Positions 1,064-31,113 of a stretch of DNA of 64,000 nt are shown piece by piece; position 1 is the first letter of the stretch, and the number at the start of each line of letters is the position of its first letter. The position numbers and the translations under genes were made by a program. The notes below the pieces were generated by a model. The model ran no database searches. It was not told where the DNA came from and worked only from the letters and a program-made list of their open reading frames with translations. Source of the DNA: a virus (Duplodnaviria > Heunggongvirae > Uroviricota > Caudoviricetes); the IMG/VR virus record IMGVR_UViG_3300048016_000310. One strand, written 5' to 3'.

Positions 1064-1457
1064 TTTTTAGAGCTTCTGTGATTGAAGCATTGTATTGATT
1101 TTCAATTTCTTGAATATTTTCTACAATTCCAAAAAGACCTTTCATTTCTTCAGAAAATTCTTTTTTCTTTTGTACAACAAGTTTCTTCAAGTTTTCTTCA
1201 GCAATTTTGATTTCTTTATCAAATTCTGTTTTCTTCTTTAAGATTGCTCTTGCTTTTTCTTTAAACTGTACGATTACAGCTTCTTTTTGTTCAGCTACAA
1301 GTTCATCTACTAGAGATGCAACTTCTGAATTAGAGACTTTAGGTTTTTTAAAAATAGACTGTCCTCCTAAAAGGGCTACTAGTTTTGAAAAGTTAGCATC
1401 AAACTGTTTTGATACTTTGTCATTGTCATTTTGTTGGTTTTGAACTTCTTCTGTCAT
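1044..1457 (-). CDS. hypothetical coiled-coil protein
   Basis: 137-aa ORF, Lys/Glu-rich with heptad-like pattern. No recognisable catalytic motif. Confidence 0.45.
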   Translation of the reverse strand: MTEEVQNQQNDNDKVSKQFDANFSKLVALLGGQSIFKKPKVSNSEVASLVDELVAEQKEAVIVQFKEKARAILKKKTEFDKEIKIAEENLKKLVVQKKKEFSEEMKGLFGIVENIQEIENQYNASITEALKNDPETL

Positions 1458-1840
1458 TGAAATTTAAAATTTGATAAATTTTTTATATGTTTATTAAAGC
1501 CTTCTAGAGTTTTAACCCTAGTATCTTCAACTTTTGGACTATTAGATATTGCTTCTTCTAAAAATCTATTTATTAGTCTACAACTTTCGAAAGCAGTGTC
1601 TTCACAAGAAAAAAAAGAAAGTTTTTGTAAACCTTCTTCAGTCAACCTTATACTTAACCATCTAGGTTTAAAAAACTTATAGACATGGTGACCTACATGT
1701 AACCTCAAGGGTTGCATAAAATTTAAAATTAAAGCAAAAGCATGTTCTTCAGTTCTTGGTAAACCTTGTTCTGAAATGTAAAAATTCATTTTTTGAACTA
1801 CACTAGAACAAATCCTTCTTATTTTTTCAGTTTCTAACAT
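1454..1840 (-). CDS. Putative C-terminal (body) segment of the tRNA nucleotidyltransferase. May be a split or frameshifted continuation of 1834..2538.
   Basis: 128-aa ORF immediately downstream of the CCA head-domain ORF, overlapping it by 7 nt. Its position is consistent with the missing body domain. No independent motif. Confidence 0.35.
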   Translation of the reverse strand: MLETEKIRRICSSVVQKMNFYISEQGLPRTEEHAFALILNFMQPLRLHVGHHVYKFFKPRWLSIRLTEEGLQKLSFFSCEDTAFESCRLINRFLEEAISNSPKVEDTRVKTLEGFNKHIKNLSNFKFQ

Positions 1841-2538
1841 TCTGTAGTAGGTTTAAGCCAGAGTCCTGTATGGTCAAAAGCATATTTTTGCAAAGCTTCA
1901 AATTTGTAAAGCATTTTTAAAGTTGCCATTGTATTAAACTTAAAACATTTGTAAAGTTCTTCTCTAACTCTTTCAATACTTATTGTAGAATAATCATAAG
2001 AATAATGTAAAGCGTCTGCTACATTATCTGACAAATTAAACTTTTTGGTTATAGAAAATCTTATAGCTCTGAAAATTCTTAGAGGATCATCTTTAAAAGT
2101 TATATAAGCATCTAAAGGAGTATCGATAAGTCTTAATTTTAAATCTTCTATACCTCTACCTGTTAAATCTATGATTTCTCCATCTTTTTCAAATAAAGTG
2201 TTGATTGTAAAGTCTCTTCTCCAAACGTCGTCTGCAATAGTTCCAGGAGCTAAAATAGGCTGCCTTGTATTAGGATAATATCCTAATTCTTTTCTTGCAA
2301 GAACAAAATCAGCTACAAGACCTGCATTTTCATGAATGGTAGGAAACTTAGCCCTAACTGTATAACAAGATTCAGTTGCAAGAAAAATTTGATACCCTTG
2401 TAATTCTAGGTAAGTAGTCATTTCTTTCCAAGCTAAATCTATAGTACTTGCAGTAGGAATTACTACAAAATCCCTATCTTTAGATTGAATCTCAAGTAAT
2501 CTGTCTCTAATAGACCCTCCTATTTCATATATTTCCAT
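1834..2538 (-). CDS. cca: Class II tRNA nucleotidyltransferase (CCA-adding enzyme / polyA polymerase family), head+neck domain
   Basis: Motifs IGGSIRDRLL (GGxVRD), DRDFVV (DxD), RRDFTINTL and DDPLRIFRAIRF are all hallmarks of class II nucleotidyltransferases. Confidence 0.8.
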   Translation of the reverse strand: MEIYEIGGSIRDRLLEIQSKDRDFVVIPTASTIDLAWKEMTTYLELQGYQIFLATESCYTVRAKFPTIHENAGLVADFVLARKELGYYPNTRQPILAPGTIADDVWRRDFTINTLFEKDGEIIDLTGRGIEDLKLRLIDTPLDAYITFKDDPLRIFRAIRFSITKKFNLSDNVADALHYSYDYSTISIERVREELYKCFKFNTMATLKMLYKFEALQKYAFDHTGLWLKPTTEC

Positions 2539-4739: not shown

Positions 4740-4942
4740 AATAGTATAAATCTTACGTTTAAGTTTCCTTTTGTTTTTCTAGAATCTTTCAGAGTAGTTT
4801 CAATTTTGTATTTTACTACAGATTTTTTGTAACGCAGTTCGATTATAGAACCTGAACTTAAATCTTTTTGAAATCTTCTTACTTTTCTTTTTACAGTTTT
4901 AAAAGAATTTCCTACTTTTGTGTTATTTACGTAGATGTTCAT
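4736..4942 (-). CDS. hypothetical small basic protein
   Basis: 68-aa ORF with a 4-nt overlap with flanking genes (translational coupling pattern). Confidence 0.3.
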   Translation of the reverse strand: MNIYVNNTKVGNSFKTVKRKVRRFQKDLSSGSIIELRYKKSVVKYKIETTLKDSRKTKGNLNVRFILL

Positions 4943-5481
4943 AAAAATAAATTGTTTAAATAATTTAACATTTCTGGATATTTTTTTGCATTCACACTTC
5001 TTGTAAAATGTTCATTTTCTTGTCTATACATATCAAACTGCCTTGATTTAGTCATTTTTGAATACTGTACGTTGGCAATTCTATCACAAAGTTTTACAAA
5101 AGTTGCACCTTTTGTGTTTTTTATACCTTTGTAGTATTTTGCATTGGCTCTTTCTGCTCTTGTTTTACCTTTCTCATTAGTACAAGCAAAGATAATATCA
5201 GCAATATCAGAACCTAATTGCATCTTCACGTCGTTGTAAGAAGCTCTTGTATCTTCTATAGAATCGTGTCCATAGCAAGCTAAGTAAATAGTTCTTGCTG
5301 TTATATCTACTCCAGAAAAAGAATCTATAAAAGTGTTTATAGGTAACAAATGCATGAAATCTTCAGCTACTTGTGCTACCATTTGTAAATGAAACTTATA
5401 AGGTAAGTACTTATCATAAAAATGATTAGTCTTTTCATGTAGCCCTATAAGCCAATCAATTTGTTGTTGTAATGGGCTCAT
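4939..5481 (-). CDS. HD-domain metal-dependent phosphohydrolase (small, ~180 aa)
   Basis: H...HD...D pattern with LACYGHDSIEDT (HD motif followed by ED), as in RelA/SpoT-HD, YfbR-like or dNTP/dNMP hydrolases. Its size matches small stand-alone HD hydrolases. Confidence 0.55.
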   Translation of the reverse strand: MSPLQQQIDWLIGLHEKTNHFYDKYLPYKFHLQMVAQVAEDFMHLLPINTFIDSFSGVDITARTIYLACYGHDSIEDTRASYNDVKMQLGSDIADIIFACTNEKGKTRAERANAKYYKGIKNTKGATFVKLCDRIANVQYSKMTKSRQFDMYRQENEHFTRSVNAKKYPEMLNYLNNLFL

Positions 5482-5837
5482 TAATATATGTCTCCTGATA
5501 CTGTTTTAACTGAACCAAAAATTTTCTGGGCTTGAACATCTCCAGATACTGTAGTAACATTTCCTCCAACATCTTTACAATTCACATCTCCAGAAGTAGT
5601 TTTTATATCTCCTTCAACAAGACCTGCTTGAATATCTCCAGAAGTACTGGTAATAGCCTTAGCATTTTCAACAGAAATACTTGCTGCATAGTCTACATGC
5701 AAAGAATTTATTGTATCTATTTTGATATGAATCTCTTTGTCACTTGGTAATGATTGAGACTTTCCATCAATTATAACATTGTTATTGATTATCTGAACAT
5801 TATTGCCCTGATATTTGACTCCGTTTATGATTATCAT
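5481..5837 (-). CDS. repeat protein with reiterated (T/V)SGD(I/V) units (beta-helix / bactofilin-like)
   Basis: 118 aa containing TSGDI, TSGDV, VSGDV and VSGDI repeats at roughly 10-residue spacing. Confidence 0.4.
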   Translation of the reverse strand: MIIINGVKYQGNNVQIINNNVIIDGKSQSLPSDKEIHIKIDTINSLHVDYAASISVENAKAITSTSGDIQAGLVEGDIKTTSGDVNCKDVGGNVTTVSGDVQAQKIFGSVKTVSGDIY

Positions 5838-6219
5838 AATTTTCTAAAAGTTTTTGCATATTTTCTTTCCCAACAGGATTTGCTGTTTGAAAATAATATA
5901 CAGGTAATGGTAAATTGTTTTCTTCGCAGTAGTTTATAAGCCACTTAACACAGTCATATCCAGTCTTTTCTTGGACTTTTGAGTAGTCAAAGTCTTTAAA
6001 GTCCTGCTCTATAGCATGATTCATAGCTTTTTCTCCTAAATCATGGTCAAAGAATATAACTTCTGGTAATCCCAAGGTAGATATATCATGTACAAAGTGT
6101 TCAAAAGATTTCACCCAGCCTATGTCGCTGAGTGAAACTTCTGGAGCAGCTTGAAATATTAATCTAATCCAAGGAGATGTTAAAGGGTCTCTCAAATCAT
6201 CAAGCCACAAAATTCTCAT
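5800..6219 (-). CDS. hypothetical protein (possible Rossmann/receiver-like fold)
   Basis: 139-aa ORF. N-terminal MRILWLDD and VIFFDHDLGE are reminiscent of flavodoxin-like folds. No firm assignment. Confidence 0.4.
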   Translation of the reverse strand: MRILWLDDLRDPLTSPWIRLIFQAAPEVSLSDIGWVKSFEHFVHDISTLGLPEVIFFDHDLGEKAMNHAIEQDFKDFDYSKVQEKTGYDCVKWLINYCEENNLPLPVYYFQTANPVGKENMQKLLENYDNHKRSQISGQ

Positions 6220-7313: not shown

Positions 7314-9056
7314 TTATTTGTTTATTTTTGCTCTAATTTGTTCAAATGTCTGCTGGTTGAAGAATTTTCCATCTTCATATATTACTTGTAGTAGACCTTG
7401 AGCCTCTTCTTCTTCAGTACATTCTTGTTTAACAATTAAGGTGTCACCTTCTGGTTCTTCATAATCGTTATGTACAGCACACATTCCTTTCAAAGACTTT
7501 TTAGTCCCATCATCTGTTACTGGGTCTTTGTAGATATTGTAAGAAGTTGTTTCTAAACCAGGATATGTTCCATAACCAGTAGGTTCTTTTACTTCTTGAA
7601 CTTGAAACCAAGCTCCTTTTGCTGCAAAACCTGCTGTATCTCTTGTCATATACACATAAGTGTATGAACCTATGCCAAGAACAATATTTGTGGCAGCAAA
7701 GCCTTTATTTGCAAGTCTAGAGTAAATTTGTACTTGTCTTTCTAAAGTTATTGAATCACCATAGATTGCTCCAATATGCGAGTCTAAGCGTTTATAGCCA
7801 GTAGAAGTCTCAACTGTACCAAAAATATCAGCAAGCAACTCAATTACTCCTTTCTTTTCATTTATAGAGATTTCTTGAGTCATAGCTTCATCTCTAAAGT
7901 AGGTAGTAATACCATCTTTAGTATATTCAGTTCTATTTCCTATTCCACAAGTAATTTCTACAGGGTCTCCAGAGTCAGGTCTAATTACAAGTTTTCCATC
8001 TCTAGCCATAATCAAAGATTTCAATCTAGGCAGAATATGCGTAATCAACTTCCATAAATCCATTGTATCAGAAACTACTGACAAAATGCCTTTAGGAAAT
8101 TTCAATAGCCAATCTCTAAGATTCAAGAGTTCTGCTATAGCAAGATAGTCGGGATTTTCGACTGAACCTTCAGAAGGAGCATCAAAAGCATAATAGTCTT
8201 TAATCTCTTGGTCTAGTTTACCATCTTTTAGCTTAGCTTCATAGTAAAATATTCCAGTACAAGTAACAGAATGTTCTGAAGCCAAAACTGAATTGATAAG
8301 AACTTTATCATCTGCAACATCATAGTAGTAACGAGATGCTGGAATTACATTAAGTGTATCAGAACCAGAATTTGACAAAGCATGACCAAGACCTACTGCT
8401 ATTGAGGTAAATGGATTACCTCCTCTTGAATGAAAATCATGACACATGTAATCTGCAAGCCATAAATTTTCAGGGTCTGTTTTGTTTACCCATTCTACTG
8501 CATTTTTCTTAAATTCAAATCCAAGAGTAGCAGCAATTGGCATTTGCCACGAAAGCTTTGATACCAAAGTCTCAAGGAACAAACCTAACCAAGCATATCC
8601 ATCAACAGTATTGATACCTGTCATATGTGGAATATTTGGAGGAGTAAACATACCTTCTGGCAAAGCTTTGATTTTTACAGGCAAATAACCTAAATCCCAA
8701 AGTGCAGCAAAATGTTCTCCATCGTAAGGCATACCAAAGTAGAAACTTAAATCTTCAGCAAATTTTAAAGCTTGATTTTTATGTTTATGCCAAGCTAAAG
8801 TTTCTTTTCTAAAAGTTTTTCTTTTTTCTGTAAAGAAAAAGCATTCAGAAAAAGCTGAATGAATGTATCTCCAAGTAAATTGTTGACCAGCAGACATGAT
8901 TTTTGTTATGCTTTTTGGCATGTACTTAAGATTTCTTGGAATCCATGTAAAGTACTCTTTGTTTGTTCCAGGAGCAAGCATTTCTTTATGCCCTGGTTTG
9001 TAACCATCTGCTTCATACAAAGGATTTATGCGAAACATTGTTTCTAGTTTTTCCAT
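7314..9056 (-). CDS. nadV: nicotinamide phosphoribosyltransferase-like protein (Nampt/NadV family; alternatively Namat-type nicotinamide ADP-ribose transferase)
   Basis: 580 aa. N-terminal DGYKPGH motif and overall NAPRTase-family signature (YK..H, GxGS, SEHS). Confidence 0.8.
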   Translation of the reverse strand: MEKLETMFRINPLYEADGYKPGHKEMLAPGTNKEYFTWIPRNLKYMPKSITKIMSAGQQFTWRYIHSAFSECFFFTEKRKTFRKETLAWHKHKNQALKFAEDLSFYFGMPYDGEHFAALWDLGYLPVKIKALPEGMFTPPNIPHMTGINTVDGYAWLGLFLETLVSKLSWQMPIAATLGFEFKKNAVEWVNKTDPENLWLADYMCHDFHSRGGNPFTSIAVGLGHALSNSGSDTLNVIPASRYYYDVADDKVLINSVLASEHSVTCTGIFYYEAKLKDGKLDQEIKDYYAFDAPSEGSVENPDYLAIAELLNLRDWLLKFPKGILSVVSDTMDLWKLITHILPRLKSLIMARDGKLVIRPDSGDPVEITCGIGNRTEYTKDGITTYFRDEAMTQEISINEKKGVIELLADIFGTVETSTGYKRLDSHIGAIYGDSITLERQVQIYSRLANKGFAATNIVLGIGSYTYVYMTRDTAGFAAKGAWFQVQEVKEPTGYGTYPGLETTSYNIYKDPVTDDGTKKSLKGMCAVHNDYEEPEGDTLIVKQECTEEEEAQGLLQVIYEDGKFFNQQTFEQIRAKINK

Positions 9057-9086: not shown

Positions 9087-9518
9087 TTAAACATAAGTAT
9101 ATTTATTGAGTAATAGCCAAACTAGTAATTCTAGTTCTGCATATGTTTGTATGAGTCCTCCTCTGTCATCGAGATAAGCATTCGCATATAGCTTTCTAGG
9201 TATTAAAGAACAGTCTGAATTGTATAAAAACTTTAGGCCAGCAGGACTTTCCTCATTTATCGAATGATATGGAATATTATTTTCTGCTAGATATGTTTTT
9301 ATAAACTCTGTATTTTTGTTTGCAGTCCATATAATAATGTGACATCCTATTTTATGTAAATCTCTAACTAGTTGAAACATCATTTCATAGGTTTCTCCTT
9401 TTTTATGAAAATCATATAATGTTGAGTCAAAATCTACAGCTATAATAAGTCCTTTATGTTTATGGTACTCTTCCCACAATCTCTTAAATTGAGCATTTGG
9501 TTTTAAAAATTCATCCAT
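9087..9518 (-). CDS. HAD-superfamily phosphatase (possible nucleotidase)
   Basis: DFDSTL (DxDxT motif I) near the N-terminus. Small cap-less HAD size. Confidence 0.5.
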   Translation of the reverse strand: MDEFLKPNAQFKRLWEEYHKHKGLIIAVDFDSTLYDFHKKGETYEMMFQLVRDLHKIGCHIIIWTANKNTEFIKTYLAENNIPYHSINEESPAGLKFLYNSDCSLIPRKLYANAYLDDRGGLIQTYAELELLVWLLLNKYTYV

Positions 9519-9972
9519 TTAATTCAGTTTTTACGTAAACATGACCTTCTATTAACATACACAAAGTTTCAAGTTCATGAGTATGAACTATACCAAATTT
9601 CTCACAAACTTTTAACACATTTCTGTATCTATAAAATTCTGGTGGGCAACAAACATACAATTTCAAAGAGTTAGCATGTAAACCTAATTCTAACAAACTA
9701 ATTGGACTTTTAGAATCTGGCAAAAAGTTTAAAATGATAATATCACATTTTTGCATAGCTTCTAATTCCCAATCAATCTGCTTGTCTATTTCTTCATCAG
9801 AAGCACTTGAAGCCCATTGCTTTCTTCTTGGATTGTATATGTCAAGATTTAAATCTTTCCATCTTTCTACTAATTTGTCTTGCCAATCTGTAGAATTACC
9901 ATCATCTATTGTACCACCTAAGAATACAGTTAATTTTGGAAATATTGGTTCAGGTGCTGTGAATATGCTCAT
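9511..9972 (-). CDS. nucleoside 2-deoxyribosyltransferase-like protein
   Basis: FLGGTIDDG N-terminal Rossmann-like start and PISLLELGLHA (conserved Glu in a PxxxxELG context), as in NDT/Rcl family. Confidence 0.45.
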   Translation of the reverse strand: MSIFTAPEPIFPKLTVFLGGTIDDGNSTDWQDKLVERWKDLNLDIYNPRRKQWASSASDEEIDKQIDWELEAMQKCDIIILNFLPDSKSPISLLELGLHANSLKLYVCCPPEFYRYRNVLKVCEKFGIVHTHELETLCMLIEGHVYVKTELNG

Positions 9973-10246: not shown

Positions 10247-10626
10247 AAGTAATAATAAGTTAAAAATAATTGTAAATAGTGCAAAACTTGATCCGCCCCT
10301 ATATAAGTAAATGCTCCAAAATTTGGAACAGCAGAACCTAGTTCTTTTTTATCAAACTTTTCTGCAACTAACCGAGAAGTAAAATAATCAGTTATTGTAT
10401 GTGCTACAAAAGTTATAAAAGCAAAAGCAGCTACATCTAAAGGTTTAAATTTACCATTAAACATAAAAGCTAATCCTACCCATAACCATACTGCTGAATA
10501 AACTACTGTATGAGTAATTAAAGGTTCAAATTTTTTTGACTTACCTAAAGCCCACTCTTCATCTTGACATATGAAATCTGCTACAAAATGTATAAAGATT
10601 ATTGAAAAAATCTCTACAAGTGTCAT
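10237..10626 (-). CDS. integral membrane protein
   Basis: 129 aa with several hydrophobic helices. Confidence 0.4.
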   Translation of the reverse strand: MTLVEIFSIIFIHFVADFICQDEEWALGKSKKFEPLITHTVVYSAVWLWVGLAFMFNGKFKPLDVAAFAFITFVAHTITDYFTSRLVAEKFDKKELGSAVPNFGAFTYIGADQVLHYLQLFLTYYYLCH

Positions 10627-11489
10627 AAAATTACAAGTTTATCTTGAAATTGATAAGGAACTACATATTCTAATTGTTTTGAATTTGTAGTAAAAATTTT
10701 GTCATATAGTTCAAACAACAAAGGATTTGGATTAGGGACAGTTAAATGACTTATTGCTAAGTTCAATTTACCTATATTTCTTTCTCTAAAAAGTTTAGCA
10801 AGTCCTATAAATGTTCCTCCATATAAACACATGTCATCTACGATGAGTAAATCTTTACCTTCAAAATTGTCCCTTAAAACTTCTTGTGTAAGTTCAGATT
10901 TTCCATGAACATATTTTCTAGCTTTCAAAGCTGAAAATGTTTCTCCTTTCCAATCAAGTTTGTCACAAAGTTTCTGCAAAGGTTTGTTTCCACCAGCATC
11001 AGAAGACACTAAAATTAAGTTTTTAGTATCTCTAGTAGTATAATCTCCTTCAAACATAGTCAAAGGTACTTTTTTTCCTTCTTCATCATAAGCTTGAGGG
11101 CTGGTAATAATGTCTAATACTTGCTTTATAAACAGCGAGTTATCCAAAATTACTGAGTTATTAGTTAAAGCAGGAGTTACATCTGAATGAGGATGAAAAA
11201 TTATAACTTGACCAAAGTTCAAAGAATTCAAAAAATTTGCAACAATCTTAAGATTGAAACTTTCATTTGGTTCAAACTGTCTGTCTGCTTGTTGGTCTAT
11301 CATGCAATTAATTTTTATGATACTTTTTGAAGCATCAATTAAACTTGCACATTGAGCTAAAAACCATAAGTCTTCGTAGGAGTTTAAATACACATTAAAA
11401 ATCCCATGTGAAATGTCTTCGAGTTTTGTAGCATAAAAAGTACCATCAGGATACTTTGTTTTTTTAAAGACTTCTGTAAGTTCTTTCAT
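10623..11489 (-). CDS. prs: ribose-phosphate pyrophosphokinase-like protein (Prs family; alternatively Adps-type ADP-ribose pyrophosphokinase)
   Basis: LLIVDDMCLYGGTFIGLAKLFRERNIGK closely matches the Prs PRPP-binding loop ([25 protein letters not shown]) at the expected position. Length is 288 aa. Confidence 0.7.
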   Translation of the reverse strand: MKELTEVFKKTKYPDGTFYATKLEDISHGIFNVYLNSYEDLWFLAQCASLIDASKSIIKINCMIDQQADRQFEPNESFNLKIVANFLNSLNFGQVIIFHPHSDVTPALTNNSVILDNSLFIKQVLDIITSPQAYDEEGKKVPLTMFEGDYTTRDTKNLILVSSDAGGNKPLQKLCDKLDWKGETFSALKARKYVHGKSELTQEVLRDNFEGKDLLIVDDMCLYGGTFIGLAKLFRERNIGKLNLAISHLTVPNPNPLLFELYDKIFTTNSKQLEYVVPYQFQDKLVIL

Positions 11490-11959
11490 AGTTCTGTTAA
11501 AAATTGTTTAAATAATCTTTTAATTTTAAATAAATGAGCCTTATTTTCATAGGGATTTATAAAATTCTGAAGAACAAATTCTTCTGGAACTCTATGTAAA
11601 GATATTGTTACAAAAGAAGTTGGAAAAAATCTAGAATCGCAAGGACATAATATACTAGCACAATCTTCTGATGTAGTCAAAGTTAAAGAATAACAAATAC
11701 CATTCTTTTTTTTTATTACTACAGCTGGATGTCTAAATCCTGTAACTGTATAAACATCTCCTACTCTTACTTCTGTTACAACTCTTTCATGTTTAAGTTT
11801 CATAGAAGCTAAAGCCCCTCTTACTTCAGCTTTTGTCCAATTGTCTTTTTCATTAAAAAGTTCTATAAGTTCTTCTCTTGTTTTTGCTTGCATATTTGTA
11901 TTAATTCTGGTAATGTTATAAATTGAGAATCTAATCCTCTTAAACCTATTTGTAACCAA
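11486..11959 (-). CDS. hypothetical protein (true start probably the internal Met near 11893)
   Basis: The ORF overlaps the upstream helicase by ~97 nt. The internal MQAKTREEL start would reduce the overlap. Confidence 0.35.
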   Translation of the reverse strand: MVTNRFKRIRFSIYNITRINTNMQAKTREELIELFNEKDNWTKAEVRGALASMKLKHERVVTEVRVGDVYTVTGFRHPAVVIKKKNGICYSLTLTTSEDCASILCPCDSRFFPTSFVTISLHRVPEEFVLQNFINPYENKAHLFKIKRLFKQFLTEL

Positions 11960-13149
11960 ATGCTGTCACTAGGTATAATTTCATCGAAAGGCTCTATTAC
12001 AAAGTTGATAACCATTGGTGCTTTATCGGGATTATTTGGGTCTACTCTTAAAATTCTACCTAATGACTGAACTGCTGATTGTTTAGTAGAATCAAAAGAT
12101 TCTCTTAAAATACATTCTGCTGTTTCATCATCAAGCCCTGCAATAAGTTTGTAAACTGAAGAAATTTTAGCATTTTCAGATTCTAGAAATGCATTTAGAT
12201 TTTTAGTAGCAACTTTTGCTGATTGTTGTGAATGATATAGTAAACAGGTACTGTCAAGTTTAGCTATTTCTTTAGCTTTTGCAATACTTTTTGAAAATAA
12301 AATAGTTTTTTTGTACAAGTAAGGGTATAATTCTCGTAGATATACGAGCTTATTTTGAGCATTACTTAAAAGCCCAATTCTTTTTGTTCTAGTTCTAAGC
12401 CAGTTGAAGTTTATTCCTACTGCTTGAGGTTCTTGTGTTAAAGCTTTAATTTGTGCAGCACTTACTAAAGGTTTATCTACACCAAAGTTTGAAAAATAAG
12501 TTTTGCATCTGGATTCTTGTTCTGTAACAGCTTTATATAAAAGTTGTTCTTGTTTAGTAAAAGGTACATAAACATTGTATATTTCAAATTCTGGGACAAG
12601 TTCAAGCAAAGAAGCTTCTTGTAAAGAAATATGAAATTCATCTTTAAGTCCTATTGTTTGAAAAAATCGTAATTGTTCATTCTTTAAAGTAGCACTTAAA
12701 AATAACCTAAATTTAGGCTTAAAATTATGAATATTTGCAAAACCTGTTCCTTCTTTAGCTACTCCAATATGACATTCATCGACTATTAATAGTAGAGGAT
12801 TTTGTGGAGGCAGCTTACTATATGTATTTATTATGAAAATTTTAATATTTTCAATACCTTGTGTGTGAGTTTGCCACTGTTCTAACAAAGCATTTGTAGG
12901 CAAGACTATATGAATTTCTCCAAGCGATTGTTTTCGCAGAAGCTTTATAATCTTTAAAGCAAATACAGTCTTACCTGTAGCAGTAGCCCATGTACATAAA
13001 AGTTGTCCTTTAGTTTCAATAAAATACTTTATTCCAATATCTTGAATTAAATCTCTCTTCTTGAACTTATCAGGTTCTTTTTGTATTGCTTCTATATGGA
13101 TTTGTTGTAATTTATACTTCATAATGCACAATATATGTATTAGGTACAT
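11863..13149 (-). CDS. superfamily-2 DEAD/DEAH-box helicase
   Basis: Walker A CTWATATGKT, DEAD-like LLIVDECH, SAT-like motif LSAT. Confidence 0.7.
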   Translation of the reverse strand: MYLIHILCIMKYKLQQIHIEAIQKEPDKFKKRDLIQDIGIKYFIETKGQLLCTWATATGKTVFALKIIKLLRKQSLGEIHIVLPTNALLEQWQTHTQGIENIKIFIINTYSKLPPQNPLLLIVDECHIGVAKEGTGFANIHNFKPKFRLFLSATLKNEQLRFFQTIGLKDEFHISLQEASLLELVPEFEIYNVYVPFTKQEQLLYKAVTEQESRCKTYFSNFGVDKPLVSAAQIKALTQEPQAVGINFNWLRTRTKRIGLLSNAQNKLVYLRELYPYLYKKTILFSKSIAKAKEIAKLDSTCLLYHSQQSAKVATKNLNAFLESENAKISSVYKLIAGLDDETAECILRESFDSTKQSAVQSLGRILRVDPNNPDKAPMVINFVIEPFDEIIPSDSIWLQIGLRGLDSQFITLPELIQICKQKQEKNL

Positions 13150-13660
13150 AATCTGTTAACCATACATTATTTTCAGTAAGAAAAAATTTATAACCATCTT
13201 TATGCATTTCTAAAGCTTTTACTTCTAGTGCAATAGGGTCTCCATGTCTTAATCCTGTAAGTAAAGCTATTTGAAAATTTTCAGTTAAGTGTGCGGCATG
13301 TCTTTTTTGTTTTTTTATACCTTCTACTCTGATTAAATGCTCTACTTCTTTACAAGTACCATGATATAAAATCTTTGGAGGTACTGAAGGCTTTAACTGT
13401 AAATCTACATCAAATGAGTGTCCTTGCAAAGCTCTAATTTTTTTACTATCTTCTGAAAATTCAAATCTTTTTTTGTTGTTTGTAGCAACGATGTGCTTTA
13501 GTTTTTCTTCTGTTATCTGTAACTCCCTACAAATAAAAGAAGCATCAGCCCACCCAGTAGAATCTACTAAATGTGGCTGATGTCTTAAAATGTAACTTAA
13601 CTTAGTCATGAAATTGAACTTCACCGCATCTTTGTAAAGGCTGATACAGTGAAGGGTCAA
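13112..13660 (-). CDS. kptA: RNA 2'-phosphotransferase Tpt1/KptA (NAD-dependent). Likely start is MTKLSYILRH at ~13609.
   Basis: KLSYILRHQP, GWA, IRALQGHS, LYHGT and a GI...R...HVHL-like C-terminal region are all conserved Tpt1/KptA blocks. Confidence 0.75.
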   Translation of the reverse strand: MTLHCISLYKDAVKFNFMTKLSYILRHQPHLVDSTGWADASFICRELQITEEKLKHIVATNNKKRFEFSEDSKKIRALQGHSFDVDLQLKPSVPPKILYHGTCKEVEHLIRVEGIKKQKRHAAHLTENFQIALLTGLRHGDPIALEVKALEMHKDGYKFFLTENNVWLTDYVPNTYIVHYEV

Positions 13661-14657
13661 AAGTTTTTAAATCTTCAGTACAAGTTACATGGATATACGT
13701 AGAACAATCTATATTTAAGCCTTCTTTAATAAGCCTTTTATTTGTTTTTATTGCATACTCACAAAGGTCTAAGTTTATTGGAGCAACTTTAAAGGCTCCT
13801 TGAAACTCATTACTTACATTTGTTTCTCTAAGGTCAGGCTTTAATTCTACAGTTTCTTCAGAAAAAGGCCCAAAACCATGTCTTGTTTGATAAGCTCTGG
13901 TTACACAATGTAATTTTACATCAGAAAGATTATGTCCTCTAATTTTGTACTTTTTTAATAACGATACAGCATTTTTTACTGTTGTTGATGCATGAGTTAC
14001 ATTAGGAAAATAACCAAAATCTTCATCTAAATAAAAACCTTGATTTCCTTCAAATATAATATTAGAATAATAAGTAGGATTTCTATCATAAGTAGCTTTT
14101 ATCATCCATTTAGAAGCATCTAAAAACGCAGAAATTTCATTTTCTAAAAGCTCTGTATTGTTATAATATCTTCTAACAGACTCTAATTTTTGCAAAATAT
14201 GCCATTCAGGAGCAAATAAATCTGCAAAAATAAAACTTACTCCATCATTCATACGTTTTTGAGTAGTATGAATACCTTTTCCAGTAGTTGCACCTAAACT
14301 TTCCGAATTTTCTTGATTGGCTATAACATCAAAAGGAGTTATAATTGGGCAATTTTTATCTACAACCAATTCAGAAGACATATGAAATGTTTTTAAGATA
14401 AGGTCGCATTCTCTTTTTAACATTTCTGGAGATACTAAAACTTTTGGACCTATAAATCCAGCATTTCCAGTAGAAAAATTTGCTGGAATACTAGAACAAA
14501 TATGAGTTTTAGCATTTATTCTAATAGTATGTCCACAATTGGGTCCTCCACCAGTTCTTACAGCTGTACAATCTCTTAATTCATTTGCAAGTTTATTTAC
14601 AATACGACCTTTACCTTCATCTCCAAATCCAATACCAACTACTATATGTCCTACCAT
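13602..14657 (-). CDS. adenylosuccinate synthetase homolog, short archaeal/PurZ-like form (351 aa)
   Basis: GFGDEGKGRIV (P-loop GDEGKGK), RTGGGPNCGHTI (GxNAGHT), GATTGKGI (GTTGRGIGP), EGNQG (EGAQG). About 80 aa shorter than bacterial PurA. Confidence 0.8.
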   Translation of the reverse strand: MVGHIVVGIGFGDEGKGRIVNKLANELRDCTAVRTGGGPNCGHTIRINAKTHICSSIPANFSTGNAGFIGPKVLVSPEMLKRECDLILKTFHMSSELVVDKNCPIITPFDVIANQENSESLGATTGKGIHTTQKRMNDGVSFIFADLFAPEWHILQKLESVRRYYNNTELLENEISAFLDASKWMIKATYDRNPTYYSNIIFEGNQGFYLDEDFGYFPNVTHASTTVKNAVSLLKKYKIRGHNLSDVKLHCVTRAYQTRHGFGPFSEETVELKPDLRETNVSNEFQGAFKVAPINLDLCEYAIKTNKRLIKEGLNIDCSTYIHVTCTEDLKTFDPSLYQPLQRCGEVQFHD

Positions 14658-14658
14658 T

Positions 14659-18553: not shown

Positions 18554-18660
18554 TCGGCCTGTTTGGATTCGAACCAAAGCTATAATTGTTCCTAGAAGTA
18601 TCATAGTTATTAAAATTAACTAAGAAATGACAATCGCCTCTACCACTGGGCTACAGGCCG
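18554..18660 (-). tRNA. tRNA-like gene (107 nt). Acceptor, D and T arms are canonical. The anticodon region carries a ~33-nt insertion.
   Basis: Acceptor CGGCCTG/CAGGCCG, D-arm GCCC-AGTGGTAG-AGGC, T-arm TTTGG-TTCGAAT-CCAAA. Putative anticodon stem ATTGT/ACAAT encloses 40 nt, including hairpin TAGTTA-ATTTTAA-TAACTA and the TGATACTTCTAGG tail. No canonical 7-nt anticodon loop could be read. Confidence 0.5.
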
Positions 18661-18664
18661 AATT

Positions 18665-19027
18665 TTACTTTAAGAATAAAGTAATTTTTTGTTTTTTTAT
18701 TAAAATGTTATCAAGATTATATGAGCAAAAATCTGAATCCCACAAAGCTATCCTGATTCCTTGCAAAAACTCATGTGAATCTTCAAATGTTTCTTCAAAT
18801 CTGTATTCAAATACTGGAGGAAGATAAGTTAATGTTAAACGATTTCTATCTTTAGAAAGCTCTTCCCATCTTTGCTGTTGCAGACTTTTGTCTTTTTCAT
18901 TAAACCAAGAGTTTGTTAATCTTCGATGTTTAAAGAAGTCTTGCATAGAAAAATCTTCTTCTCTTAAAGTAGGCATTATTGCTGCTATTTGCTCACCTAC
19001 TTCTAAACCTTTTTCATAGTCTGTCAT
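18665..19027 (-). CDS. hypothetical protein
   Basis: 120-aa ORF ending 4 nt from the tRNA-like gene. Confidence 0.4.
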   Translation of the reverse strand: MTDYEKGLEVGEQIAAIMPTLREEDFSMQDFFKHRRLTNSWFNEKDKSLQQQRWEELSKDRNRLTLTYLPPVFEYRFEETFEDSHEFLQGIRIALWDSDFCSYNLDNILIKKQKITLFLK

Positions 19028-19042
19028 AAATAAAAATTGTTA

Positions 19043-19113
19043 AAATAAAAATGAGATTCGAACTCATATCTCTGAATTCTTAGTTCAGTGTAATACCATT
19101 ATACTATATTCCC
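19043..19113 (-). tRNA. tRNA-like gene (71 nt), possibly degenerate. Clean anticodon arm (loop CTAAGAA, anticodon AAG) but poorly paired acceptor stem.
   Basis: D-arm GTAT-AATGGTA-TTAC, anticodon arm CTGAA-CTAAGAA-TTCAG, T-arm ATGAG-TTCGAAT-CTCAT. 5-prime GGGAATA versus 3-prime TTTTATT pairs at only 5 of 7 positions. No encoded CCA. Confidence 0.4.
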
Positions 19114-19147
19114 AAAGCGGAAAATAGAAGTAATTTTAACATAAAAG

Positions 19148-19258
19148 GGGAGATGATGGGATTCGAACCCACATCTGGTCATTTAACAATTGATAGAAGT
19201 AACTTAGTCATAAAAATTGACCAAGTAATTCCCGCTCTACCATTAAGCTACACCTCCC
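19148..19258 (-). tRNA. tRNA-His-like gene (G-1 / C73) with a ~36-nt insertion in the anticodon region
   Basis: Extra 5-prime G opposite discriminator C. Acceptor GGAGGTG/CATCTCC, D-arm GCTT-AATGGTA-GAGC, T-arm GTGGG-TTCGAAT-CCCAT. Middle 60 nt contain hairpin TTGGTCA-ATTTTTA-TGACTAA followed by GTTACTTCTATC. No GTG anticodon identifiable. Confidence 0.5.
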
Positions 19259-19324
19259 ATAAAGAAATTGACTGTCTAAGTTTTTTATCCACTAAAATTA
19301 GGAGTAAGACAGTCATAAAGATTA

Positions 19325-19873
19325 TTACATTAATAGAAGAAGCCTTCTATCATATGAATGAAATTCGAATTCGAATGTACAACAATACTCTACTATTTTT
19401 GAATCTTCAAGAGTGTCATGCATTTTAACAACTTCTGAAAGCTGCATTAATTGGGAAGGCTTTCCTACTGGTTTTTCAAAAGACATAGCTTTTAAACTAC
19501 TTTGACCTAAAGAGTCATAAGTTTGAGGAACTCCTCTGATATGTGCATTCACAGAAAGATCTGCTTTATACACAGCAAGAGAGTTATTTGTTTGAGTCCT
19601 ATATGCAATATAAATAGATTTGTTTTGAAAAACTGCTTGTTCTAGTTCTGTTTTACACCCTTTTGGAAGACTGGTTCTTACATATTGCCAAGCAAATTCA
19701 GGCAACACTATAACAAAAGCATCACAAGTGTTAATCCAATTTTTCTCTTTATCACCATATGTTGTACCTCTTTCCCAAAATACAGCTGCATTACCAGCAT
19801 CTTGTAGACGTTTTTGAACTAAATCAAGCTGCCATTGTGGAATTGACATCGGACAAGAAATGTAACATTTCAT
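19325..19873 (-). CDS. hypothetical protein
   Basis: 182-aa ORF. Confidence 0.4.
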   Translation of the reverse strand: MKCYISCPMSIPQWQLDLVQKRLQDAGNAAVFWERGTTYGDKEKNWINTCDAFVIVLPEFAWQYVRTSLPKGCKTELEQAVFQNKSIYIAYRTQTNNSLAVYKADLSVNAHIRGVPQTYDSLGQSSLKAMSFEKPVGKPSQLMQLSEVVKMHDTLEDSKIVEYCCTFEFEFHSYDRRLLLLM

Positions 19874-20250
19874 GCTCCAAAGTAAGTTTCAAATGACTTT
19901 ACTTTACATTCTAACTCAAGCTCGGCAAGCTTAAGGTCATATTCTAAGTCTATAATCTCTTTGAACCGAGCTGTGGCATCTTCTCTAGTCATGAGCTTTA
20001 AGCCTAGATTATGGTCAGTTTTTAAAGTAAACTCTTTTTTGTCTGCAATTTTGTCACGAAGACTTTCTACTTTGTCTTGCAAAGGAGAGATTACTGTTTC
20101 AACAAGTTTTCTCTTCACAGATGAAACATACTCTGAAGCCCTTTCTTGAGGGGTTTTGTTATTTACTAACAATTTAAAGGCTTCTGTGCCTTTTAGGTTT
20201 TCTGGTGTTTTGATAGACATAATTTTACAATTTAATAATAAAAAAAACAA
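19870..20250 (-). CDS. hypothetical protein
   Basis: 126-aa ORF. Coiled-coil C-terminus. Confidence 0.4.
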   Translation of the reverse strand: MFFLLLNCKIMSIKTPENLKGTEAFKLLVNNKTPQERASEYVSSVKRKLVETVISPLQDKVESLRDKIADKKEFTLKTDHNLGLKLMTREDATARFKEIIDLEYDLKLAELELECKVKSFETYFGA

Positions 20251-20725
20251 TCATCGGAGACCCCGATTGATATTCTACATAGCTTATAGTTCTAAATCCT
20301 AGATGTTTGAAAAGCAGAGCATAACTCTGAGGTCTGTTGCTTATATCTATAAACTTTTGAATTGTTCTTGATTCTCGTGCAGCTAAAAATGTTAAAACTA
20401 ATTTAGAGTTTGGTTTAACATTTCTTAAAAAATTTAAAAGTTTAAAAGGAAAAGGGCCACAGAAATCTAAGAACATACCATCATACAAAGAAGATTCTGC
20501 ATTTAATACATTCCCACAATTTAATTCTACGTTAAGAGGAGCTACTAATTGTTGCTGTTTAAACACTACTCTATTTTGTTCGAAACAAACTACTTTTGCA
20601 GTTTTTGCTAAAAATTCTTCTAAGTCAAAATAAAGATTAGGTAGTGTTAAAACATTTTTACAACTTTTTAGAAAATTTTTTACAAATTCTCTAATTTGTA
20701 TTTTATGGTCAGTAGGTTGATACAT
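20225..20725 (-). CDS. hypothetical protein (weak resemblance to a SAM-dependent methyltransferase fold)
   Basis: 166 aa. MFLDFCGPF resembles MTase motif I (LDxxCGxG) but is not conclusive. Confidence 0.35.
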   Translation of the reverse strand: MYQPTDHKIQIREFVKNFLKSCKNVLTLPNLYFDLEEFLAKTAKVVCFEQNRVVFKQQQLVAPLNVELNCGNVLNAESSLYDGMFLDFCGPFPFKLLNFLRNVKPNSKLVLTFLAARESRTIQKFIDISNRPQSYALLFKHLGFRTISYVEYQSGSPMIVFFIIKL

Positions 20726-20726
20726 A

Positions 20727-21029
20727 TTACCAAGAAAATTCTATTCCTTGAATAACAGCTCTATTACTTGGAAATTCCATTTTAGTACCATTGACTTTTA
20801 TTTCATTTGGTTCTAAATTTGGCATCATTATCATTTGTAGTGGACTAAAGTCTGGCTGCTTCATAAGCTCTTCAACTTTTTTTGGCTTATGCTTATAATA
20901 TTGATATAAGTTAAAAATAGATTGAGAACCTATATTAAACTTTATTGCAAGTTTAATTCTTTCTTGTTTGTTTTTTGTAGCTAAAAGTTCAGCTAATTGT
21001 TCATCTGTAAGCACTCTCATTCTTGCCAT
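20727..21029 (-). CDS. hypothetical protein
   Basis: 100-aa ORF. Confidence 0.35.
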   Translation of the reverse strand: MARMRVLTDEQLAELLATKNKQERIKLAIKFNIGSQSIFNLYQYYKHKPKKVEELMKQPDFSPLQMIMMPNLEPNEIKVNGTKMEFPSNRAVIQGIEFSW

Positions 21030-21067
21030 GATTTTGAAATAAATTTAATAATTAAAAATAAAAAAAG

Positions 21068-21176
21068 CAGTGGGGCTAGGATTCGAACCTAGGTCTCTCT
21101 CGTGACAGGAGTAGAAGTAGCTAAATTATAAAAATTAATCAAGCAATAAGCGTATTAGCCACTATACGACCCCACT
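21068..21176 (-). tRNA. tRNA-like gene (109 nt) with a ~36-nt insertion in the anticodon region
   Basis: Acceptor AGTGGGG/CCCCACT, D-arm GTAT-AGTGGCTA-ATAC, T-arm CTAGG-TTCGAAT-CCTAG. The middle contains hairpin GATTA-ATTTTTA-TAATT followed by TAGCTACTTCTACTCC. Confidence 0.5.
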
Positions 21177-21252
21177 ATAAAAAATTGACTGTTTAAAGGT
21201 TTTTTCAAATAGAATTTTTAGAAGTAAGATAGTCATTATAAAGTGTTCATTA

Positions 21253-21696
21253 TCAAGAAGTTATGACTAATAATCCTTTATCAAATTCCCAATGACAATT
21301 GGGACATAAAAAGACTAAGTTCTTGATATTGTTAATTTCTCCTATTAAAGTTTCTTTAGAAAAGGTTCCTATTCCTTTAATATGACAACATTCCACATGT
21401 TTGTCATAGCCACAATTGTAGCATTCTTTAACATAATATTCAGATGCAATAGCTCTTGCTTGCATTCTTATTTTCCCATACTTGTTTTGTGGGGAAGAAG
21501 AGCTAGAAGAATTTTCTTCTAATGTTTTTAAATGTGCAATACTTCTTTTAGGATTTTCTTTATTTACACAAACATTACAATACTTTCTTTGAGAAGGAGC
21601 TTCTGCATTACAATTAATACATAAGTATTTTTTACCATCTCTTTTAAAAGTGTTTTTGTATTGTTTCCAATTTGTTCTTTTTACTTTGTCTTTCAT
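21253..21696 (-). CDS. HNH endonuclease
   Basis: ECCHIKGIG...NNIKNLVFLCPNCHWEFDKG (H-N-H core with a flanking Cys pair), plus an N-terminal CxxC...CxxC zinc finger. Confidence 0.65.
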   Translation of the reverse strand: MKDKVKRTNWKQYKNTFKRDGKKYLCINCNAEAPSQRKYCNVCVNKENPKRSIAHLKTLEENSSSSSSPQNKYGKIRMQARAIASEYYVKECYNCGYDKHVECCHIKGIGTFSKETLIGEINNIKNLVFLCPNCHWEFDKGLLVITS

Positions 21697-21753
21697 AGTA
21701 CAAAGATAAAAGAAATATGCCTAACTTACAAATAAATTAAGCATATTTTATAG

Positions 21754-21862
21754 TGGGGATGCCAGGAATCGAACCTGGAACAGCTGCTCCTGATGCTAGA
21801 AGTATCACAGTTATTAGAATTAACTGAGAAAATAAACTGTGTTACCATTACACCACATCCCG
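21754..21862 (-). tRNA. tRNA-like gene (109 nt) with a ~36-nt insertion in the anticodon region. The insertion is near-identical to that in 18554..18660.
   Basis: Acceptor CGGGATG/CATCCCC (C1 mismatch), D-arm GTGT-AATGGTA-ACAC, T-arm CCAGG-TTCGATT-CCTGG. Insert TCAGTTAATTCTAATAACTGTGATACTTCTAGC versus TTAGTTAATTTTAATAACTATGATACTTCTAGG in the first gene, with a compensatory T-A to C-G change in the hairpin stem. Confidence 0.5.
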
Positions 21863-22024
21863 ATGAATAAACAAATTAACTAATCATTTTTACTACAACC
21901 TTTGTTTTTTAGAAGTAGATTAGTTATAAGACAAATTAAGAAATAACATATACCAGCTATTTATAATATAATTTGTTTTTTAATTAGGAACTTATAGAGG
22001 TCACATTATAAGTATAATATAAAG

Positions 22025-22109
22025 TAGAGATAAATGGACTCGAACCACTAACCTTTTTACAGCAAACTAAATAGACTATAAAATGCTCTACCAATTGAGC
22101 TATATCTCC
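22025..22109 (-). tRNA. tRNA-like gene (85 nt) with an enlarged (19-nt) anticodon loop, i.e. a ~12-nt insertion
   Basis: Acceptor GGAGATA/TATCTCT, D-arm GCTC-AATTGGTA-GAGC, anticodon stem TTTTA/TAAAA enclosing TAGTCTATTTAGTTTGCTG, T-arm AGTGG-TTCGAGT-CCATT. Confidence 0.45.
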
Positions 22110-22171
22110 AAGATAAAATTGATTAAGTAAATAATTTTTAATCAAAAATAGAAGTAACTTAATCATAATAG

Positions 22172-22242
22172 TGCAGAACCTAGGATTCGAACCTAAAGTT
22201 TAAAAATTCCCTTTTACGTGTTGCCATTACACCACTTTCTGC
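22172..22242 (-). tRNA. tRNA-like gene (71 nt). Anticodon loop appears 6 nt (GGGAAT). Isotype unresolved.
   Basis: Acceptor GCAGAAA/GTTCTGC (one mismatch), D-loop TAATGGCA with GG, anticodon stem TAAAA/TTTTA, T-arm TTAGG-TTCGAAT-CCTAG. No encoded CCA. Confidence 0.45.
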
Positions 22243-22554: not shown

Positions 22555-22581
22555 AATAGAATTTTTTACAAATGTACGAAA

Positions 22582-30154: not shown

Positions 30155-31113
30155 TAGTTAAGAGTTAATAGAAAGCCAATTGTAAAGTTGGCATCCCAGT
30201 CAAAAATGTATTTTGTAGGTATCTCTTGCACCATTGCTGAATAAATGTTTAAGCCAGATTTAAGCTTTACATCATCACCAAAAGAATATTCTTCTGGAGC
30301 TTTTAGAAGCGTAAAACGCTCTTCTGCATTTCTAGATTCTTTTGCAAGTTTAAATGGAACTCCACCAATGATAAAGCAATTCTCCCTTTGAGAAGTAGGA
30401 ATTGTTTTTAAAGCAACTTTTATAGCTGTAGCAACTTCATCATCTGTTTTTCCATCTTGATAATATTTAGCACCTGGAGCTTCTACTGAAAATGGATTAC
30501 CATTTTTATATGAAGTAATCTTAGTATTTCCAGAACCAATATCTACAACAAATGAATTAGAACGATAAGACTTAGGCAGTAAAGCTTTTAATGCATACTT
30601 AGCCTCTTGGTCAGCAGTAACTCTATTTACTACATAACCCATATCTTCTATAGCTTTAGCAATTAATTCAGTCTTTTTATTCTTTAAAGCACCTGATGAC
30701 ATAACGAAATGTGCATTACGACCTGCTACACCTCTTTCAAACATCTTGGCAAGATACTTTTTTATTCCTGTTTGTACATCAAGAGTAGTAATAAACCCTT
30801 CATAAGCTAAAGATTCACCAAACTCTTTTGATATTAATTCCCAATTATCTTGTTTATCAACTTCTACTACAAATGAGTTGAATCCTGAAGCACCAACTTC
30901 AATTACTCCAAGTTTTTTACCGTTAATAGGTCTTTCTGTTTGAATGTTAATTGAAGAGGCTGTAGATGAAGGGATTAGATCAATATTCTCTATTGTAAGA
31001 ACTTTCTCTGGCTCAGAAGGCAAGACATCTGGATGTTTATAAGTATAATACTTAAATCCAGCTAGTGCTAAGACTAGCAATACTACGATTCCTAAAACGA
31101 TTTTCTGTTTCAT
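30154..31113 (-). CDS. ASKHA-superfamily (actin/Ppx-GppA-like) ATPase-fold protein with N-terminal TM anchor
   Basis: Phosphate-1/2-like motifs GVIEVGASGFNSF and VVDIGSGNTKIT. N-terminal hydrophobic helix. Confidence 0.4.
   Translation of the reverse strand: MKQKIVLGIVVLLVLALAGFKYYTYKHPDVLPSEPEKVLTIENIDLIPSSTASSINIQTERPINGKKLGVIEVGASGFNSFVVEVDKQDNWELISKEFGESLAYEGFITTLDVQTGIKKYLAKMFERGVAGRNAHFVMSSGALKNKKTELIAKAIEDMGYVVNRVTADQEAKYALKALLPKSYRSNSFVVDIGSGNTKITSYKNGNPFSVEAPGAKYYQDGKTDDEVATAIKVALKTIPTSQRENCFIIGGVPFKLAKESRNAEERFTLLKAPEEYSFGDDVKLKSGLNIYSAMVQEIPTKYIFDWDANFTIGFLLTLN

Follow-up and report, generated by a model that had tools for sequence, protein, structure and literature searches.

Why would a crAss-like phage carry an RNA 2'-phosphotransferase? 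The question is raised by a reading frame at 13112..13660 on the minus strand of a 64,000-nucleotide stretch of phage DNA (IMG/VR record IMGVR_UViG_3300048016_000310; this whole stretch is referred to here as the window), for which an earlier reading of the sequence, the original prediction, had proposed a Tpt1/KptA enzyme forming part of a phage toolkit for RNA-end processing. To our knowledge the role of Tpt1/KptA in bacteria and their viruses is unsettled, and we know of no 2'-phosphate-generating pathway there. What is new here is that a crAss-like Tpt1 gene is conserved inside an apparent island of NARP1 NAD+-reconstitution and ADP-ribose-processing genes. With moderate confidence we favor the view that the product is a functional crAss-phage RNA 2'-phosphotransferase that would clear 2'-phosphates from RNA ends or junctions, its co-substrate being supplied by NARP1.

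The Tpt1/KptA gene and its product

Profile and structure comparisons confirm the Tpt1/KptA identity of the product, far beyond chance. It matches Pfam PF01885 (PTS_2-RNA) with E=7.6e-34 and 117.7 bits (cut-off 26) over profile positions 9-176 of 177, phrog_5470 'RNA 2'-phosphotransferase' with 7.6e-49, and four NCBIfam RNA 2'-phosphotransferase models, the best at 1.1e-51, with scores below the equivalog cut-offs (175 vs 239 bits). The best match among solved structures is Tpt1 of Runella slithyformis (7KW8, 1.2e-40; query residues 21-177 on chain residues 11-176), and Clostridium thermocellum 6E3A is aligned nearly end to end (1.2e-24).

The Arg-His-Arg-Arg catalytic tetrad, which the original prediction had singled out for inspection, is intact, with R26/H27/R65/R120 falling on R16/H17/R64/R119 of Runella Tpt1 (RslTpt1) in the 7KW8 alignment. 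Across 19 aligned sequences (the phage protein and 18 homologues) none of these four residues varies, nor do the IRAxQGHS and H(G)T motifs. RslTpt1 is a proven 2'-phosphotransferase whose function is abolished by alanine substitution of Arg16, His17, Arg64 or Arg119 (PMC6097658). By homology, the phage protein is thus predicted to be a functional NAD+-dependent, two-step RNA 2'-phosphotransferase. The two-lobe Tpt1 fold (RNA binding by the N-terminal lobe, NAD+ binding by an ADP-ribosyltransferase-like C-terminal lobe) is likely, given that the alignments to 7KW8 and 6E3A run end to end and that the IRAxQGHS and YHGT motifs are conserved.

Besides being the best structure match (7KW8/7KW9), the Runella enzyme shares the length class and the tetrad of the phage protein, and Runella belongs to the Bacteroidota, the phylum expected to host crAss-like phages; a Bacteroidota-type host lineage is the probable source of the phage gene. 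The settings of the two differ in that the phage gene lies in an NAD+-salvage island, with neither a ligase nor an end-healing enzyme close by.

The longest form of the reading frame begins with TTG at 13660 and encodes 182 residues, the version used for residue numbering. In-frame alternatives are GTG at 13624, giving 170 residues, the length called in relatives, and ATG at 13609, giving 165 residues; the true start is probably one of these two. With the ATG as its start, Tpt1 would overlap by 8 nt the stop of the PurA-like gene that precedes it, within ATGACTAA.

A predicted NAD+ and ADP-ribose island

Tpt1 is followed on the same strand by genes that overlap or nearly abut (Table 1). In order these encode a superfamily 2 (SF2) helicase, whose start overlaps the Tpt1 stop, a 135-residue protein (orf135), a phosphoribosyl pyrophosphate (PRPP) synthetase-like protein, a DUF3307 membrane protein, a small open reading frame (ORF) product, deoxyribosyltransferase-like and HAD-type phosphatase-like proteins, a 580-residue Nampt-family protein, an AAA ATPase, a cREC protein and an HD phosphohydrolase. 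Judged by gene content, this NAD+/ADP-ribose island accounts for the placement of Tpt1 better than an RNA-end toolkit does.

Table 1. Coordinates of Tpt1 and of the other features discussed, in window positions except for the PARP-domain gene.
Feature	Coordinates	Strand	Matches and remarks
Tpt1/KptA RNA 2'-phosphotransferase coding sequence	13112..13660	minus	PF01885, 7KW8, phrog_5470
PurA-like, 351 aa, short and divergent	13602..14657	minus	PF00709 5.3e-39, profile 1-286 of 416
SF2 helicase (ResIII/DEAD/Helicase_C)	11863..13149	minus	directly downstream of Tpt1
PRPP-synthetase-like, candidate Adps (NARP1 ADP-ribose pyrophosphokinase)	10623..11489	minus	phrog_619 4.7e-36
Nucleoside 2-deoxyribosyltransferase-like (DrHyd-class)	9511..9972	minus	PF15891 1.2e-26
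HAD-type phosphatase-like	9087..9518	minus	phrog_1238 2.9e-23; DxDxT motif 'VDFDSTL'; no Pfam match
Nampt-family, 580 aa, candidate Namat (NARP1 nicotinamide ADP-ribose transferase)	7314..9056	minus	phrog_448 1.4e-130
cREC ('cyclic-phosphate processing receiver') protein	5800..6219	minus	PF20274 3e-17
HD-domain phosphohydrolase-like	4939..5481	minus	phrog_990 2e-21; HD_4 and SpoT matches weak
NADAR domain protein, ADP-ribose-processing family	31110..31553	minus	PF08719 2.1e-22
PARP-catalytic-domain protein, 355 aa	L005 15017-16084, ~2.5-3.5 kb beyond window position 1		PF00644 2.6e-22
Short CCA-adding-type tRNA nucleotidyltransferase, 234 aa	1834..2538	minus	PF01743 4.7e-14; phrog_24229 1.2e-48, full profile
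ATP-dependent DNA ligase	2..1063	minus	PF01068 6.3e-20, PF14743 8.7e-9; phrog_114 2.7e-75
tRNA region	18560..22241	minus	Rfam RF00005 matches and repeat-element analysis
Ordinary tRNAs	19043-19113; 29182-29255		Rfam
tRNA-like genes, ~110 nt, 37-39-nt inserts	~18560-18660; 19148-19257; 21068-21176; 21754-21862	minus	
tRNA gene, 85 nt, 12 extra nt in anticodon loop	22025-22109	minus	
Weak tRNA match	22173-22241	minus	

Two of these genes are predicted to specify a NARP1-type NAD+ reconstitution pair, Adps-like and Namat-like, an assignment that follows from the Namat-type structure match and residues of the one and the kinship of the other to a phage 'Prs' family. The best structures for the Nampt-family protein are 9W5W/9W5X (~8e-82, compared with ~1e-27 for true Nampt), which are phage Namat of NARP1 (PMC12774641). 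The selectivity-clamp helix of Namat has aromatic residues at two positions where Nampt has Gly and Lys (PMC12774641); these residues, F392 and Y396, align to Y/Y in the window protein, R40 aligns to K, and the catalytic Arg of RPDSGDP is kept. The PRPP-synthetase-like protein resembles true Prs weakly (7e-5 in the PDB; 44 bits to TIGR01251, cut-off 113) and has its homologues in a phage 'Prs' family represented in 629 phage records, those of ICP1 and phi92-like phages among them.

The two genes are separated by 1.6 kb that include a phosphatase-like gene, a likeness to NARP1 and NARP1-AP, and the candidate Namat has the clamp aromatics of that type. The window differs from NARP1-AP in that the intervening phosphatase is HAD-type whereas Adpp is a Macro-domain protein, and in that four genes split the core pair (DUF3307, the small ORF, and the deoxyribosyltransferase-like and HAD-type phosphatase-like genes). 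Some NARP1 operons are reported to include in addition a Poa1p-like ADP-ribose-1''-phosphate phosphatase (bioRxiv 10.64898/2026.01.28.702374), and the stretch from the Adps-like to the Namat-like gene is possibly an 'extended NARP1' variant whose phosphatase is not of the Macro type. We found no mention of Tpt1 as a NARP1-associated gene in the descriptions of NARP1 consulted.

The ORF that follows the helicase and precedes the Adps-like gene, orf135 (11486..11893), was considered as a MazF/PemK-like endoRNase on account of its 'VGDVY...HPAVVI' segment, and no supporting match was obtained. Exhaustive HMMER searching places it in a family of 175 members; the family profile matched nothing in the PDB, no consistent Pfam family was found among the members, and a single-sequence structure model (pLDDT 39) was unusable. 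The PurA-like protein was likewise considered as PurZ, a Z-genome marker, and rejected, as it scores 59 bits against the NF038379 cut-off of 300 and no PurZ is present among its PDB matches. Its kin are 'PurA-like' proteins of mycobacteriophages (cluster-C-type) and of some jumbo phages.

Proposed role of Tpt1

In the reaction inferred from close homology, the RNA 2'-phosphate would attack NAD+ with release of nicotinamide. Host metal-independent RNases, for example anticodon nucleases, would leave 2',3'-cyclic ends, and the opening of these would yield 2'-phosphates, with the neighboring cREC protein as a candidate opener. Opening of cyclic phosphates is what the describers of cREC predict for it (PMC9503650). 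Tpt1 would remove the resulting 2'-phosphates from RNA ends or junctions, as its context and published comparative genomics suggest; phage KptA has been read as serving NAD+-dependent clean-up of RNA 2'-phosphates, or tRNA and RNA repair (PMC9503650). The Adps-like and Namat-like proteins would rebuild NAD+ from ADP-ribose and nicotinamide, and NARP1 would in this way protect the NAD+ that Tpt1 uses up as co-substrate and also keep it supplied.

A more speculative extension concerns the by-product. In yeast, where Poa1p is an enzyme of the Tpt1 by-product route, Tpt1 is followed by Cpd1 (2H) and Poa1p (Macro), such that ADP-ribose cyclic phosphate becomes ADP-ribose phosphate and then ADP-ribose. 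The first enzyme is the same in the phage, which has predicted cREC and phosphatase genes nearby; the downstream candidates, however, are non-homologous (cREC for 2H, HAD or HD for Macro), and the Trl1-type ligase and splicing endonuclease of the yeast route were not found in the phage DNA examined. The cREC protein, and then the HAD or HD protein, might turn ADP-ribose cyclic phosphate into ADP-ribose, from which Adps and Namat would regenerate NAD+ in a closed loop. The cREC, 2H, Macro and NADAR families are all predicted to process ADP-ribose by-products of KptA (PMC9503650).

Besides NARP1, the phage encodes three predicted ADP-ribose-related enzymes, namely Tpt1, a NADAR protein and a PARP-like protein (Table 1). 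The latter two are among the grounds for an alternative in which Tpt1 acts mainly as a nucleic-acid ADP-ribosyltransferase that caps 5'-monophosphate RNA or DNA ends, with the PARP-like protein as a writer and NADAR as an eraser. Such 5'-phosphate ADP-ribosylation is documented for bacterial and mammalian Tpt1 (PMC12678800, PMC10415124), and the window scans revealed no pathway that would generate 2'-phosphates. The residues required for the full two-step phosphotransferase reaction are nevertheless all kept, and the closest solved relative is the Runella enzyme with its proven activity. The two activities are indistinguishable by sequence alone, and we regard this alternative as unlikely. The island suggests in either case that the phage protects and recycles the NAD+ used by its own NAD+-consuming RNA-repair or ADP-ribosylation enzymes.

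RNA ligases and the points against a clearing role

The window was scanned as concatenated translations of ORFs of >=59 aa that no longer ORF overlaps, over its whole length against Pfam and up to 54.5 kb against PHROGs. Two further contigs, L005 (98.9% identical to the window) and L008 (100% identical), represent essentially the same phage and add flanks of 8.2 kb and 9.9 kb, bringing the DNA examined to 82 kb. The flanks were covered with Pfam, as precomputed for the contigs and as run here for six hypothetical ORFs of L005.

Several points weigh against clearance of RNA 2'-phosphates as the role of Tpt1. No RNA_ligase, RNA_lig_T4_1, RtcB, tRNA_lig_CPD, 2H/LigT or polynucleotide kinase family was found among the scanned window ORFs, and Pfam detected none of these families in the ~18 kb of flanks; the repair pathway is therefore incomplete as seen. 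The role is deduced from sequence and context, and gene adjacency in a long co-directional phage array carries little weight. The activity of cREC is, as published, a prediction (PMC9503650). The link between Tpt1 and NARP1 is lineage-specific, as a Nampt-family gene lies within 10 kb in only three of the 80 best IMG/VR viral Tpt1 loci. Finally, Tpt1 evolves faster than its neighbors, and the copy in one relative (L002, below) is altered in the HGT and RHG motifs of the C-lobe. On the clearing role we favor, sealing would be left to a host ligase or to an unrecognized protein, as no such step was found encoded in the 82 kb.

The scans thus agree with the original prediction that no ligase of the Rnl1, Rnl2, RtcB or Trl1 type is recognizable in the window, and they support the toolkit itself only in part. 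Its presumed DNA-ligase-type nucleotidyltransferase is an ATP-dependent DNA ligase, an ordinary one (the last two residues are cut by the window edge, and L005 has the complete protein of 356 aa). A CCA-adding enzyme had been placed at 1454..2538; this is borne out for 1834..2538, while 1454..1840 forms an ORF of its own that matched no family. The MYG1-like exonuclease proposed at 38405..39217 is matched over its first ~90 residues, the N-terminal metal-binding region (profile 1-65 of 318, 28.4 bits), and the likeness does not extend to the remainder. A pathway of Trl1-type ligase, cyclic phosphodiesterase, kinase and Tpt1 was not found within the examined DNA, and with no ligase, 2H protein or kinase at hand the toolkit framing was overstated.

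The largest conserved hypothetical protein of the block, orf409 (409 aa; 3510-4739, minus strand), has homologues of 400-600 aa and an invariant SCM...RALxW...DRIY motif set. It was considered as a hidden RNA ligase and set aside, having no match to Pfam, NCBIfam or PDB profiles. Its AlphaFold model (pLDDT 70) gave weak matches to GNAT acetyltransferases in the central domain (E=4e-3) and no nucleotidyltransferase fold.

The same scans bear on the idea that Tpt1 erases internal 2'-phosphate modifications on host or phage RNAs. RNA 2'-phosphorylation, as 2'-phosphouridine at tRNA position 47, has reportedly been described with KptA as its eraser, and the phage enzyme is intact. Its known occurrence, however, is in thermophilic archaea and a small number of bacteria, the window showed no ArkI-like kinase, and nothing indicates such a modification in the phage host, so that we give this explanation very little credence.

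Conservation and evolution

Two relatives carrying Tpt1 were identified on the ENA contigs L001 (115.5 kb) and L002 (160 kb), with 84% and 68% identity in Tpt1, respectively. Both have the order vWA-like, PurA-like, Tpt1, helicase, 135-aa ORF, Adps-like and DUF3307, followed further on by Namat-like, AAA, cREC and HD, and both keep the PurA-like/Tpt1 overlap, the conservation of which the original prediction had asked about. In L001, ORFs for LAGLIDADG and GIY-YIG proteins are inserted between the DUF3307 and Nampt-family genes.

Within this array the genes differ in their rates of change. The ratio of nonsynonymous to synonymous substitution rates (dN/dS) against the relatives is 0.38-0.56 for Tpt1, 0.33-0.42 for the PurA-like gene, 0.26-0.29 for cREC, 0.14-0.31 for the vWA-like gene, and 0.06-0.13 for the helicase, Adps-like and AAA genes. 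Tpt1, PurA-like and cREC are faster-evolving than their neighbors, and all are under purifying selection. At the amino-acid level the helicase is 91-94% identical in the relatives, and the PurA-like protein 59%, compared with ~90% for neighboring genes.

This rate difference raises the prospect that Tpt1 is a recently captured host gene, a drifting passenger of little or no role for the phage. Its identity (67-83%) and dN/dS contrast with those of the flanking genes (~90%, 0.06-0.16), and the G of the HGT motif is lost in the L002 and P0004 copies. The dN/dS of Tpt1 is still well below 1, however, all three phages have an unbroken reading frame and the complete tetrad, and the start overlaps the upstream gene as in coupled operon genes. 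We consider a passenger very improbable.

Interrupted tRNA-like genes and a repeated hairpin element

The Tpt1 gene itself is unsurprising; more unusual are the interrupted, anticodon-variable tRNA-like genes adjacent to it and the hairpin element repeated among them. The original prediction had noted tRNA-like genes with inserts near Tpt1, and these are real: four genes 5-9 kb from Tpt1 carry inserts in the anticodon stem, and orthologues with like inserts are present in L001 (1-5100) and L002 (250-5100). The insert has the layout X - ATTTTTA - X' - TACTTCTA, a 9-bp hairpin followed by an octamer, and interrupts the 5' strand of the anticodon stem. Enumeration of single deletions in families A-C gave a canonical 5-bp stem and 7-nt loop only if the insert was removed from the 5' stem strand, with the restoring deletion ending exactly after the octamer TACTTCTA (its last A). 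In family D the anticodon stem has two compensatory base-pair changes between relatives. The intron mode of ARAGORN was also tried, and its intron calls were inconsistent, the deletion enumeration being the more consistent of the two.

The inserts are of the same kind as an element found upstream of every tRNA gene, where the arrangement is TTTA-X'(9 nt)-TACTTCTA-spacer(25-45 nt)-X(9 nt)-ATTTTTT-tRNA. In each copy X' is the reverse complement of the 9-nt X, and the two covary among copies (TGACTACCA/TGGTAGTCA and TGACTGTCT/AGACAGTCA, for instance). A 20-nt motif, TTATRAYTNNNN-TACTTCTA, is present in 11 copies, all in the tRNA region (18593-23738, minus strand). A plain sigma-type promoter is an unlikely identity for TACTTCTA, given the ~4-nt spacing to the upstream conserved block and the covariation of the X/X' stem. 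Bulge-helix-bulge introns were rejected as an identity for the inserts, which consist of the 9-bp hairpin and TACTTCTA, and the Pfam scan of window ORFs found no splicing endonuclease of the tRNA_int_endo family. A search of IMG/VR with the 20-nt element pattern returned chance single matches only, and the one locus with two matches (L117) is unrelated coding DNA. The element may be a processing stem, a single-strand DNA or hairpin cassette, or a regulatory unit.

Orthologous tRNA and tRNA-like genes keep their bodies and differ in their anticodon loops (AAG vs CAT, GTC vs TCC, CAG vs CCA), as seen for 19043-19113, 21068-21176 and 21754-21862 in comparison with L001 and L002; at L001 187-265 an extra small hairpin takes the place of the anticodon loop. 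Such variation is odd for decoding tRNAs and may mean that the RNAs act as decoys or that anticodon nucleases have driven an arms race.

For a tie of these genes to Tpt1, which had been suggested, we found no evidence beyond proximity and co-conservation in three close relatives. In each of the three relatives that have the phage Tpt1 the tRNA-like cluster is present as well, and no ligase is seen within 10 kb; being close relatives, they lend the co-occurrence no discriminating power. One explanation would make Tpt1 the last maturation step of the phage tRNA-like RNAs, following endonuclease excision and fungal/plant-type ligation with removal of the 2'-phosphate. Points in its favor are the conservation of the cluster with Tpt1 in L001 and L002, the canonical anticodon arm restored in families A-C with the 3' boundary of the insert at the end of TACTTCTA, the compensatory changes in family D, and the phage's CCA-type enzyme. 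The window scans found none of the splicing endonuclease, Trl1-type ligase, cyclic phosphodiesterase and kinase that it calls for, however; each insert is one more copy of the repeated hairpin element and not a bulge-helix-bulge intron, the anticodon loops vary between orthologues, and joining by a host ligase of the RtcB type would not give a 2'-phosphate. We therefore consider it very unlikely. The more specific proposal that Tpt1 is retained for a protein-catalyzed cut-and-join maturation of the four hairpin-split RNAs, with TACTTCTA-ended inserts and a 2'-phosphate at the junction, is highly improbable; if true, it would amount to enzymatic tRNA splicing in the style of eukaryotes and archaea in a bacterial virus, with an endonuclease and a ligase as yet unrecognized.

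Three HNH endonuclease ORFs are present in and around the tRNA region (15839-16210, 21253-21696 and 23772-24314, all minus strand), where homing endonuclease traffic appears to be high.

Tpt1 in other phages

GenBank has 97 phage records with an annotated Tpt1 homologue, and IMG/VR has 334 contigs that contain one; among the carriers of PHROG 5470 are jumbo phages of Erwinia, Dickeya, Klebsiella and Serratia as well as C. difficile phiCD211. Phage Tpt1 is thus a known kind of gene, represented in GenBank, IMG/VR, a PHROG family and published reviews, to which a crAss-like example is added here; it belongs to the same family as the PHROG 5470 proteins and differs from them in an identity of <=42%. 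The annotated neighborhoods of Tpt1 in phiCD211 and Dickeya phage JA29 are uninformative.

Two surveys of viral Tpt1 neighborhoods were made. The first, covering 10 kb around each of the best 80 IMG/VR loci, is the source of the Nampt-family count given above, and no locus among these 80 shared the gene block or was crAss-like. In the second, which took the four nearest ORFs at each of 37 non-redundant loci, RtcB, Rnl-type RNA ligase, NADAR, Nudix and DUF3307 were encountered twice each and Nampt once. An RNA ligase is therefore a neighbor at ~4 of the 37 viral loci, roughly a tenth, which supports a general association of Tpt1 with repair.

Genome layout

We assign the virus to the crAss-like phages from its predicted structural genes. 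The window is AT-rich (~30% G+C), its long ORFs lie nearly all on the minus strand from 1 to ~41.5 kb and on the plus strand beyond, and terminase, portal and capsid genes are located at 46.7-54.5 kb. A match to Crass_capsid is weak, a CrAss_Ring_2 protein is encoded at 63217..63867, and CrAss_Ring_1 is found just past the window end on L008. A nucleotide search of GenBank phages with window positions 10000-18000 gave no match, an exact 41-mer from Tpt1 found no close relative in IMG/VR, and neither did a search there with the helicase protein. Within the structural module, a 511-aa protein (61680-63215, plus strand) has weak matches to GDP-fucose O-fucosyltransferase and 2OG-Fe(II) oxygenase, both below the Pfam cut-offs.

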